A DNA stretch of 40,051 nucleotides from Candidatus Woesearchaeota archaeon (GCA_964418495.1 CAYQLQ010000001.1:1-40051), one strand, 5' to 3'. Counted from the first letter of the stretch, positions 28,943-35,212 are shown. A program made the numbers and translations. Notes: generated from the letters alone by a model not told the origin.

Positions 28943-29061
28943 TAGCCCCACCAGGATTCGAACCTGGGTCACAGCCTTTCTTCATCTCCAAGACGGAGAA
29001 GTGCCGAGTGTAAGCACTCAATCTCAAAGGGCTGCATACTTGACCGCTGTACTATGGGGCT
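28943..29061 (-). tRNA. tRNA-Gln (anticodon UUG) with a 46-nt intron at the canonical 37/38 position and no encoded CCA
   Basis: Hand-folded: acceptor AGCCCCA/TGGGGCT, D arm GTAC-AGCGGTCAA-GTAT, anticodon stem CAGCC/GGCTG, loop CTTTGA|intron|A, and T arm CCAGG-TTCGAAT-CCTGG. The intron spans 28978..29023. Confidence 0.85.
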
Positions 29062-34013: not shown

Positions 34014-34430
34014 ATGGGAGCAATGTTTTTTGAATATGAAGTAGGGATTAGACCTGTGGATTGGAGAGTTCAGGGATCAAGGAAGGAGCGCTGCGTTAGT
34101 TTTTATCAGCGAGGGGGAGATGCGGTTGTAAGGGCGGATGGACAAACCGGTATTGGTTATGTTTTAGGAGAACCTTTGATTATGGATTCTGGATTAACGA
34201 CCGCACATTTTAATGCTCTTTCTCTTGTAGCACAAATTCCCAGAACCGAAGGTCCTATTGAGCGAGATTTGAAAGCAGCACTGAAGGTTTTTGGAAACCA
34301 AAGATTTAATCAGTCAGCACAGGGAGATGTTGTTTTTTACGCAGAGATTTGCCCTCTTGGGCGACCTACGAATGTTGAACCGATTCATATGAGATTTTCT
34401 CCCTCGGGTGTAGAGGTTCTGGTGTCTTGA
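34014..34430 (+). CDS. Orphan hypothetical protein (138 aa), noticeably more GC-rich and less Lys-rich than its neighbours
   Basis: The ORF has CTTTTAAA at 33986..33993, about 21 nt before ATG 34014. No motif was recognised. Confidence 0.4.
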   Translation: MGAMFFEYEVGIRPVDWRVQGSRKERCVSFYQRGGDAVVRADGQTGIGYVLGEPLIMDSGLTTAHFNALSLVAQIPRTEGPIERDLKAALKVFGNQRFNQSAQGDVVFYAEICPLGRPTNVEPIHMRFSPSGVEVLVS

Positions 34431-34441
34431 GTATAGCAATT

Positions 34442-34449
34442 GTTAAAAA
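34442..34449 (+). promoter_or_regulatory. TATA-like box (GTTAAAAA)
   Basis: It lies 22 nt before the first ATGATAAC at 34471. No comparably spaced box precedes the GINS ATG itself. Confidence 0.4.
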
Positions 34450-34470
34450 CCGAAGGTTTGTTGTATTTTT

Positions 34471-34509
34471 ATGATAACTTGTGACGAAATCGCAGGAGAC
34501 TTCGAATGA
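34471..34509 (+). other. Mini-ORF 1 (MITCDEIAGDFE*) whose stop overlaps the next ATG as ATGA
   Basis: Hand translation. It begins with the same ATGATAAC as the GINS gene. Confidence 0.35.
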
Positions 34510-34661
34510 TAACCTATAACGACATCCACGAATCTGGAGGACACCTACGGTTTCCTTCCACTAACCTTCCCTCTCGACACTGTGAAGCGATTTCTTTAAA
34601 TGCCTCCGACGGAAATCGCGACTTCGAAATATTCATTAAATTTTTATGGAGTTTAGAATGA
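34506..34661 (+). other. Mini-ORF 2 (51 codons, MITYNDIHE...) that duplicates the first 9 GINS codons. Its stop overlaps the GINS ATG as ATGA.
   Basis: Hand translation. Segments 34506..34532 and 34658..34684 are identical at 23 of 27 nt, including a 14-nt perfect run. Confidence 0.35.
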
Positions 34662-35212
34662 TAACCTATAATGATATTTACGAAGCCTCACAGAAGGAGC
34701 GGTATTCTGAGAGATTGCAGAAACTTGGGAAGAATTTTGTTATTGATGTGGCGGATTATCTTCGGGACAAGAAGGAGATGGCTGCGAAAGAGAGCGATGA
34801 GTTTTCTGATGTGATTATAAAAACAAAGAAGCAACTTGAGAATGCGATTACGTTGTTTAAGGAGTTGATGTTGCGACGGCGGAAGAAAATTCTGACGCTG
34901 GTTTTGATTGCGGCGGAGACTGGAATTTCGAAACAGGATTTTGAAAATATGTTGCTTTTTGAGAAAGAACTTTTTGAGGAATTTATGAAATGTATTGACG
35001 CGTCGGACAAGACAATGAACGAACTTATGCACGGCAAGGCGAACGGCGATGTTATGAATGAGCTTGTTGTTTTTCTCGACGATGTGGAGGAATTTTTGGG
35101 GCTTGGGCAGGAAAAGATGGGGCCGTTTGTAAAAGGGCAGATGGCGAATATTCCTAAGAATGTTGCGCAGATTCTTGTGGAGGACAAGAAGTGCGAGATT
35201 GTAGAGGAGTAA
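34658..35212 (+). CDS. GINS complex subunit (Gins51/Gins15-like)
   Basis: The motifs are YNDIYEASQKERYSERLQKL...RRRKKILTLVLIAAE and the C-terminal VVFLDDVEEFLGLGQEKMGPFVKGQMANIPKNVAQILVE, which resembles the archaeal Gins51 B-domain. An alternative ATG lies at 34646. Confidence 0.65.
   Translation: MITYNDIYEASQKERYSERLQKLGKNFVIDVADYLRDKKEMAAKESDEFSDVIIKTKKQLENAITLFKELMLRRRKKILTLVLIAAETGISKQDFENMLLFEKELFEEFMKCIDASDKTMNELMHGKANGDVMNELVVFLDDVEEFLGLGQEKMGPFVKGQMANIPKNVAQILVEDKKCEIVEE

Follow-up and report, generated by a model that had tools for sequence, protein, structure and literature searches.

A dispersed two-hairpin repeat between copies of the start of a probably leaderless GINS gene in a DPANN archaeon

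We analysed a 40,051-nt stretch of DNA from Candidatus Woesearchaeota archaeon (GCA_964418495.1 CAYQLQ010000001.1:1-40051), hereafter the window, in which two small open reading frames (ORFs) and a structured repeat element precede the GINS51 gene. The host genome is a 0.55-Mb, 84%-complete assembly of a DPANN archaeon (Pacearchaeota-like). The GINS51 gene (34658..35212, + strand, as for all features of this locus) encodes a protein of 184 amino acids (aa) with a match to Pfam Gins51_C (4.6e-9). Homologues in 39 of 41 related genomes align from GINS residue 1 at 34658, so this ATG is the true start; the GINS relatives come from metagenome-assembled genomes (MAGs) labelled Pacearchaeota, Woesearchaeota or Nanoarchaeota. 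The start sequence ATGATAAC occurs three times in the window, at 34471, 34506 and 34658. The first occurrence opens ORF1 (34471..34509, 12 codons), the TGA of which overlaps the ATG of ORF2 (34506..34661, 51 codons, MITYNDIHE...), and the TGA of ORF2 overlaps the GINS ATG at 34658. Both junctions (34506-09 and 34658-61) are ATGA overlaps on the same strand. The spacing between starts is 35 nt in the first unit and 152 nt in the second, and both obey the same frame rule (2 mod 3). ORF2 begins with an upstream, decoy copy of GINS codons 1-10 (34506..34535), which differs from the GINS start at 4 of 27 nt, three in third codon positions and one in a first position (His/Tyr), and which retains GAATCTG like the real GINS of the closest relative. 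The three occurrences, the two ORFs with their overlaps and the four differences between the start copies had been described in the original prediction and were reproduced here.

The GINS promoter TAGCAATTGTTAAAAA (34434..34449), with a TFB recognition element (BRE)/TATA-like box, includes GTTAAAAA at 34442-49 and ends 21 nt before the first ATG at 34471. No box at leaderless spacing was found before 34658, in agreement with the earlier claim that the only box so spaced precedes the first ATG. A conserved box, caatYRttaaaaa, comes after the phosphoglycerate mutase gene in most relatives, with the GINS ATG ~22 nt further on; in the window and in the relatives alike, this conserved promoter stands before the first ATG. 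Of 567 long ORFs in this genome, 186 have a TATA-like box that ends 21-22 nt upstream of the ATG, a very sharp peak which implies that most mRNAs here are leaderless. A minority of starts across the genome are preceded by Shine-Dalgarno (SD)-like GGAG/GAGG motifs, with an enrichment at a distance of 4-12 nt. The distance of 21 nt at 34471 matches the peak of 21-22 nt, and we infer a transcription start at or next to 34471.

The interval between 34506 and 34658 (unit 2) consists of the upstream start copy followed by a copy of a two-hairpin element, which ORF2 crosses in the element's only open frame. The element core (~81 nt, 34539..34621) was detected with nhmmer (E=2e-6), and the covariance model R1 of the unit scored 68.3 bits (E=1.4e-11) at 34524-34669. 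Stem P2 (34536..34558; GGAGGA-C-ACC / GGT-T-TCCTTC) is, by fold and covariation, a compensated variant of the family form AAAARAACC/GGTTYTTTT. Stem P3 (34587..34619) is an inverted repeat of GCGATTTC and GAAATCGC enclosing the conserved loop ..AAATGCCTCCGACG, with covariation that includes GTGGCATC/GATGCCAC variants. The element tail (34620..34657) carries a target-complementary stub, CTTCG (34622-26), which pairs with CGAAG of the start copies, an extra A/T-rich insert with CATTAAAT (34634-41), an in-frame ATG at 34646, and an SD-like GGAG (34648-51) located 6 nt before the GINS ATG.

Unit 1 is ORF1. Here a GINS-start copy (ATGATAAC) is joined to ...GACGAAATCGC-AGGAG-ACTTCGA, the 3' tail of an element copy. 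By its direct repeats and by comparison with canonical tails, the remnant at 34483..34505 comprises the end of the P3 loop, the P3 3' arm GAAATCGC (34486-93), an SD-like AGGAG (34494-98) and a target-complementary stub, ACTTCGA (34499-505). This tail matches those of unit 2 and of units in other genomes, and arrays of two or three units also occur in genomes G156 and G078. Unit 1 is best read as a second unit after an internal loss of ~100 nt. Such a deletion accounts for the second copy of GACGAAATCGC...GACTTCGAA and for the fact that GCGATTTC has two potential partners. The duplication of GAAATCGC (34486-93 and 34612-19) and of GACTTCGAA (34498-506 and 34620-28), as well as the complementarity of GCGATTTC (34587-94) to both GAAATCGC copies, had been noticed before and was confirmed. 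The region had also been described as clearly more GC-rich than its surroundings. Its GC content (0.475-0.50) indeed exceeds that of the flanks (~0.30-0.45), but other coding regions in the window reach 0.45-0.54, and the distinguishing trait is a negative GC skew rather than GC content. No tRNA or tmRNA was detected in the spacer, and the local fold was not unusually stable, with a z-score of only -1.4 (window and genome G005).

The element is dispersed. We defined its family by covariance model R1 together with a hidden Markov model of the core. R1 matches were found in 109 of 401 family genomes, mostly at several loci per genome and mostly not at GINS, and 36 of the 37 positive genomes in an order-wide sample belong to this Pacearchaeota-like family. 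The shared core of ~81 nt is made up of P2, a linker with YCCUC, and P3 with the loop WWWTGCCTCY. The GINS spacers contain three stems. In P1, GAAGCWGC of the upstream copy pairs with GCWGCTTC, with compensatory GAATCTGC/GCAGATTC; P2 has the form AAAARAACC-loop-GGTTYTTTT; and P3 has the form GCGATTTC-(TAATTGCCTCYGR)-GAAATCGC, with compensatory GTGGCATC/GATGCCAC. Over 41 distinct rows, 94.7% of the cells were paired, compared to 82.5% in shuffles and 32-63% in slid-partner controls, in an alignment that was fitted to the model and is hence biased towards structure; double changes occurred in 21 of the 25 stem pairs. The strong covariation of the three stems across relatives bears out the earlier suggestion of an embedded structured element. 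A search of Rfam 15 gave no match on the window region at E<=10 and none on 10 well-preserved loci at E<=1, and the own-genome copies gave tRNA matches only. The P3 motif was absent from viral contigs. Literature searches returned no description of this element, and the family is apparently undescribed.

Nine copies on nine contigs were found in the host genome. Two of them fill introns of tRNA-Gly(GCC) and one other tRNA, one begins at the base directly after tRNA-His, and the remaining copies are intergenic or lie at gene ends. The copy at GINS in the window is the most divergent and degenerate of the nine, and its nearest relatives by identity are other copies of its own genome. One of the explanations first offered, a partial tandem duplication that simply copied promoter and 5' region, is not supported: the promoter occurs only once, and the spacer belongs to a dispersed element with many copies, some of them in tRNA introns and at other loci. 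The three tRNA loci lie at C12:2767-2951, C2:12059-12234 and C35:4872-5024, and the introns of tRNA-Gly(GCC) and of the other tRNA are 95 and 104 nt long, nearly all of which is element. ARAGORN reported introns in 9 of the 26 tRNA genes it found in this genome. A further tRNA gene in the window (28943-29061, - strand, Rfam 53 bits) has a 46-nt intron without the element; default ARAGORN missed it, and the intron option miscalled its anticodon.

The copies in tRNA introns raise the question of whether the GINS insert could be excised from RNA by the tRNA-splicing endonuclease at a bulge-helix-bulge (BHB)-like motif, which would restore a normal leaderless mRNA and make the mini-ORFs irrelevant. 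The same element is spliced in this way within tRNA introns, the direct repeats would make excision of one period scarless, and broad-specificity endonucleases are reported for DPANN lineages (PMC3239211). However, in a search for two 3-nt bulges on either side of a 4-bp helix, flanked by helices and positioned so that exactly one period would be removed and the frame restored, no BHB with 3-bp flanking helices was found in 18 units, and none was found in the window at any stringency. The relaxed BHB matches were all-AU/GU self-pairings of the palindromic UGAUAU. Furthermore, the conservation of frame and of ATGA junctions described below would be needless if the insert were spliced out. We therefore consider excision very unlikely.

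The covarying stems also invite comparison with a selected cis-regulatory leader of GINS, such as an attenuator, a riboswitch-like sensor, a thermometer or a protein-binding site, in which the folding of P1-P3, or pairing of the CCUCC loop with GGAG, would set the flow of ribosomes to the GINS start. The three-stem structure covaries and the arrangement persists in many genera. Both start copies are possible partners of the 3' strand of P1; in the window, GGAG and AUG would be enclosed by an imperfect helix of 17 nt between 34622-38 and 34669-85. The loop UGCCUCC and the motif YCCUC resemble anti-SD sequences, and the tails carry GGAG. On the other hand, the same core occurs at unrelated loci, in tRNA introns and at the 3' end of an opposite-strand gene, its stems carry no RNA-strand signal, and its occupancy differs between near-identical GINS genes (L125 versus L131) and is scattered on the tree. 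The window copy, moreover, is the most degenerate in the genome, and the alternative GAAATCGC helix exists only here. The attenuator with mutually exclusive GCGATTTC helices in the original prediction is accordingly not supported, since the upstream GAAATCGC is a genome-specific deletion remnant that is absent from single-unit relatives. A regulatory leader is an improbable account of the locus, albeit the one among the alternatives that we would give the most weight.

The duplicated start with the element was found at GINS in at least 25 related genomes, which are independent MAGs from different studies. A pattern search for the GINS start revealed 2-3 tandem copies, 95-170 nt apart, and 17 genomes with both duplication and element; further cases were found among the 80 closest GINS loci, and carrier calls are an undercount, since one locus (L115) was missed by the pattern. 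The layout was uniform in the fetched cases: a ~32-nt copy of the GINS start ending in ...GAAGCWGC, a conserved spacer, and the real start. Short repeats can be mis-joined in metagenome assemblies, and the window alone might have been taken for an assembly artefact or a recent neutral tandem duplication of no wider meaning. However, the same architecture in at least 25 assemblies argues against misassembly, and the copies have diverged in a codon-aware way, which leaves this explanation a negligible chance.

Occupancy of the GINS site varies. Near-identical GINS genes can be filled (L125) or empty (L131), pairs of start copies range from identical to 6 of 32 nt different, and carriers and non-carriers interleave on the tree. 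Repeated loss would be an easy route, because recombination between the direct repeats restores the ancestral gene precisely; repeated gain or transfer of whole units is also possible. A core tree of 82 columns, too few for a verdict on a single origin of the GINS-linked copies, gave 13 changes compared to 16.2 in shuffles.

Several loci show other states of this site. At L115 (~1300-1500), an extra insertion of ~30 nt lies within the P2 loop of the GINS-linked copy, a change nested within the units, and the start copy has drifted to ATGATAAT (Thr to Ile). L129 (1289-1501) carries a 212-nt insert that is unrelated to the ~81-nt core, and L107 (1469-1501) carries a 32-nt stub; each of them is likewise read as an upstream ORF whose final ATGA overlaps the GINS start. 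In L006 (G005; 706-1333) and L027 (G201), from two other genera, the interval between the GINS promoter and the duplicated start holds a gene for a DEDD/DnaQ-like 3'-5' exonuclease. This gene opens with ATGAT... directly behind the promoter, and its end overlaps the next start copy as ATGA, resulting in a three-ORF ATGA chain of exonuclease, junk ORF and GINS.

The reading frame of the upstream ORF is conserved across these units. The ATGA junction is retained in 24 of 26 related units. Spacings of 32, 56, 95, 131, 134, 137, 140, 143, 149, 152, 167, 170 and 212 nt are all 2 mod 3; they make up 13 of the 15 distinct spacer lengths (32-212 nt), and with them no stop interrupts the upstream ORF up to the TGA of the ATGA on the GINS ATG. 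At the two other lengths, 133 and 139 nt, this ORF terminates 13 nt within GINS and 1 nt ahead of its ATG, respectively. Only one frame of the core is open, and insertion at the GINS site brings this frame into phase with the upstream start. Apart from that, length varies among cores, among tails and even among unrelated inserts. Differences between start copies fall at third (45), first (8) and second (2) codon positions and comprise 44 synonymous and 10 nonsynonymous codon differences, with every nonsynonymous one in the upstream copy. The third-position pattern fits translation of the upstream copy. Most tails have GGAG or GGAGG 5-10 nt before the GINS ATG. In Haloferax, termination-reinitiation at ATGA has been shown experimentally, and SD motifs are used there for reinitiation and not for de novo initiation (PMC6728339; PMC10666635). 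The promoter site and the frame kept across 15 spacer lengths thus lend sequence-level support to the proposal that GINS may be translated by ATGA termination-reinitiation from a leaderless transcript.

The mini-ORFs would not be needed if the element tail had supplied a new internal promoter (the A/T-rich TTCATTAAATTTTTA, 34632-46), or if ribosomes initiated independently at GGAG. The extra A/T-rich stretch in the window tail does resemble a promoter box, and the genome makes use of SD-like motifs such as the GGAG found 6 nt upstream of the GINS ATG. However, the distance from the end of CATTAAAT is 16 nt to 34658 and 4 nt to 34646 instead of 21-22 nt, and the tails of other genomes have no such box. 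Independent initiation, for its part, leaves unexplained why the ORF ends on the GINS ATG at 13 of 15 spacer lengths. We consider this pair of explanations improbable, slightly more so than a regulatory leader.

The copies also share an insertion architecture. Wherever a target duplication is visible, the order is copy A, core, a segment of 8-10 nt, a short filler and copy B, and the segment corresponds in reverse complement to the final 8-10 nt of copy A. The duplication and the complementary segment were seen together at the GINS units, at L052, L056 and L061, and at C21 of the host genome; in the window, the complement is degenerate (CTTCG versus CGAAG). The segment differs from locus to locus, indicating that it is made from the target. 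The duplication measures ~17-40 nt at C21, where it spans the C-terminus and stop of an opposite-strand gene, 27-44 nt at GINS, and 42 nt at L056 and L061 (promoter plus ATGCAT). At L052, in front of another gene, it measures 55 nt and takes in the ATG; here, too, the upstream ORF terminates in ATGA. The copy at C21 (C21:5248-5370; L147 349-471) lies at the 3' end of a minus-strand gene, of which 149 aa are visible. The last codons and stop of this gene were duplicated, and the protein now ends in ...MPTWMTKNLELND instead of ...MPTWMTKNLNKNVF. One idea is that the target-complementary stem might originate by fold-back priming from the 3' end of the element.

Known modes of movement did not fit. 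A Y1 (IS200/IS605) transposase was rejected as mobiliser, its association being weak and not significant (39 of 109 carriers and 76 of 292 non-carriers, odds ratio 1.6, p=0.06), and no Y1_Tnp was found in this genome. A palindromic element of the IS200/IS605 type (PATE/REP) was dismissed, as co-occurrence with Y1 was weak and target duplications are present. For a miniature inverted-repeat transposable element (MITE), the flanking 'inverted repeat' P1 is target sequence that differs per locus, and the duplication of 17-55 nt is not fixed. No parent insertion sequence, terminal inverted repeats or cognate transposase was identified for the element. Apart from this, genes for IS200/IS605-type Y1 transposases occur in 115 of the 401 family genomes, often in multiple copies and some with in-frame stops. 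Tentatively, the element may be a new kind of archaeal mobile DNA whose insertion chemistry itself, and not later selection alone, copies the 5' or 3' end of a gene and writes a target-complementary stem, although we rate this broader proposal as less probable than its opposite. If it were true, the copied end would be a start codon, sometimes with the promoter, or a stop, making the element 'self-rescuing' at essential genes; new tRNA introns of DPANN archaea would come directly from it; and the GINS start would be a recurrent landing site at which the process is visible at different ages.

Taken together, the mini-ORF cascade is probably the footprint of a non-coding mobile repeat in a leaderless essential gene, tolerated there without being a purpose-built switch. 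Insertion after codon 11 of GINS would have duplicated the first ~27-32 nt of the gene and given rise to the short stem P1, in which the upstream copy pairs by its end with a complementary segment that directly follows the core. The locus would once have held two units, of which the first shrank by ~100 nt to ORF1 and the second is ORF2. A chain of translation then probably leads from the leaderless start at 34471 to GINS. Because the promoter still lies 21 nt before the first ATG, the mRNA would be leaderless and ribosomes would load at 34471. They would translate ORF1, stop at its UGA and restart on the overlapping AUG at 34506. Crossing the element in the one frame that is open, they would read ORF2 as far as the UGA of the AUGA at 34658. 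Reinitiation on GINS would follow, probably helped by the SD-like GGAG 6 nt upstream.

Several points weigh against this interpretation of a tolerated mobile repeat. Presence is scattered on a weakly supported GINS tree, with 23 changes for 29 carriers, and gains are inseparable from repeated precise losses on that tree. The units are non-independent, and the frame statistic (13 of 15 at p=1/3 per length class, ~3e-5 by binomial estimate) rests on ~15 length classes. Foreign GINS alleles imported by recombination could yield the same synonymous pattern, and GGAG could permit initiation that is independent of the upstream ORF. In addition, an RNA-strand test on the stems (GU/UG 13 versus AC/CA 20) gave no + strand RNA signal. 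Because the stems show no RNA-strand bias, a role at the DNA level is possible for them.

Another ORF lies close to the locus. It encodes 138 aa (34014-34430, + strand), is located between the phosphoglycerate mutase gene and the GINS promoter, and has its own box at a leaderless spacing of ~20 nt. It had no Pfam match and no homologue among 5.8 billion proteins, and the closest relative is empty at this position. It is an orphan gene or a recent insertion and adds nothing to the GINS mechanism.

If the footprint interpretation holds, the locus illustrates a way for an essential archaeal gene with leaderless mRNA to withstand an insertion that separates promoter and coding region, with the duplicated start serving as ribosome entry and ATGA overlaps handing ribosomes over. 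It would also provide natural evidence, replicated across many genomes, for termination-reinitiation in DPANN archaea, which, to our knowledge, nobody can yet grow for genetics. Repeat DNA, in-frame insertion in reduced genomes and the origin of tRNA introns in archaea come together in this element family, and the filled, decayed and empty variants of the GINS site form a ready series for studying insertion and loss of the element.

The arrangement resembles several known systems in part. In leader-peptide attenuators and regulatory upstream ORFs of the erm/trp type, a short upstream ORF overlaps RNA stems before a gene, and alternative pairings are possible. Unlike these leaders, the window has no conserved peptide or regulatory codon run, its structure is a generic repeat known from unrelated loci, and its alternative helix is a deletion remnant. 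REP/BIME and the palindromes derived from IS200/IS605 elements, which are mobilised by Y1 HUH enzymes, are likewise small hairpin repeats. IS200/IS605-type insertion makes no target duplication and needs a fixed target of 4-5 nt, whereas the element described here has target duplications and only a weak association with Y1_Tnp.

The Rickettsia palindromic elements (RPEs) and further intragenic MITE-like repeats, reviewed in PMC10969869, are similar in that they are short, gene-less, hairpin-forming repeats present in multiple copies in a reduced genome. Like the present element, they are tolerated in or at the edge of essential genes and have one open frame that can be translated in frame. In contrast to RPEs, the element also forms tRNA introns, duplicates 17-55 nt of its target and leaves a target-complementary stem. 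Furthermore, the GINS insert is not fused in frame to the protein; it forms a separate, ATGA-coupled upstream ORF. The transposed tRNA introns of Thermoproteales (Fujishima et al. 2010, as related in PMC4090602) are near-identical intervening sequences in different tRNA genes, a property shared by the element. These introns imply that intron sequences spread at the DNA level. By comparison, the element lies mostly outside tRNA genes (7 of 9 copies), its host is a DPANN archaeon, and the GINS copy has no BHB that would remove it.

The coupling itself resembles that of ATGA-overlapping gene pairs in archaea (Huber et al. 2019, PMC6728339; PMC10666635), with which the locus shares the ATGA overlap, an SD-like motif within the upstream ORF and mostly leaderless transcripts. 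The coupling at GINS is deduced from frame conservation. The known cases are pairs of real genes, whereas here the upstream partner is a junk ORF, which appears to have arisen from an insertion that copied the leaderless start of the gene.

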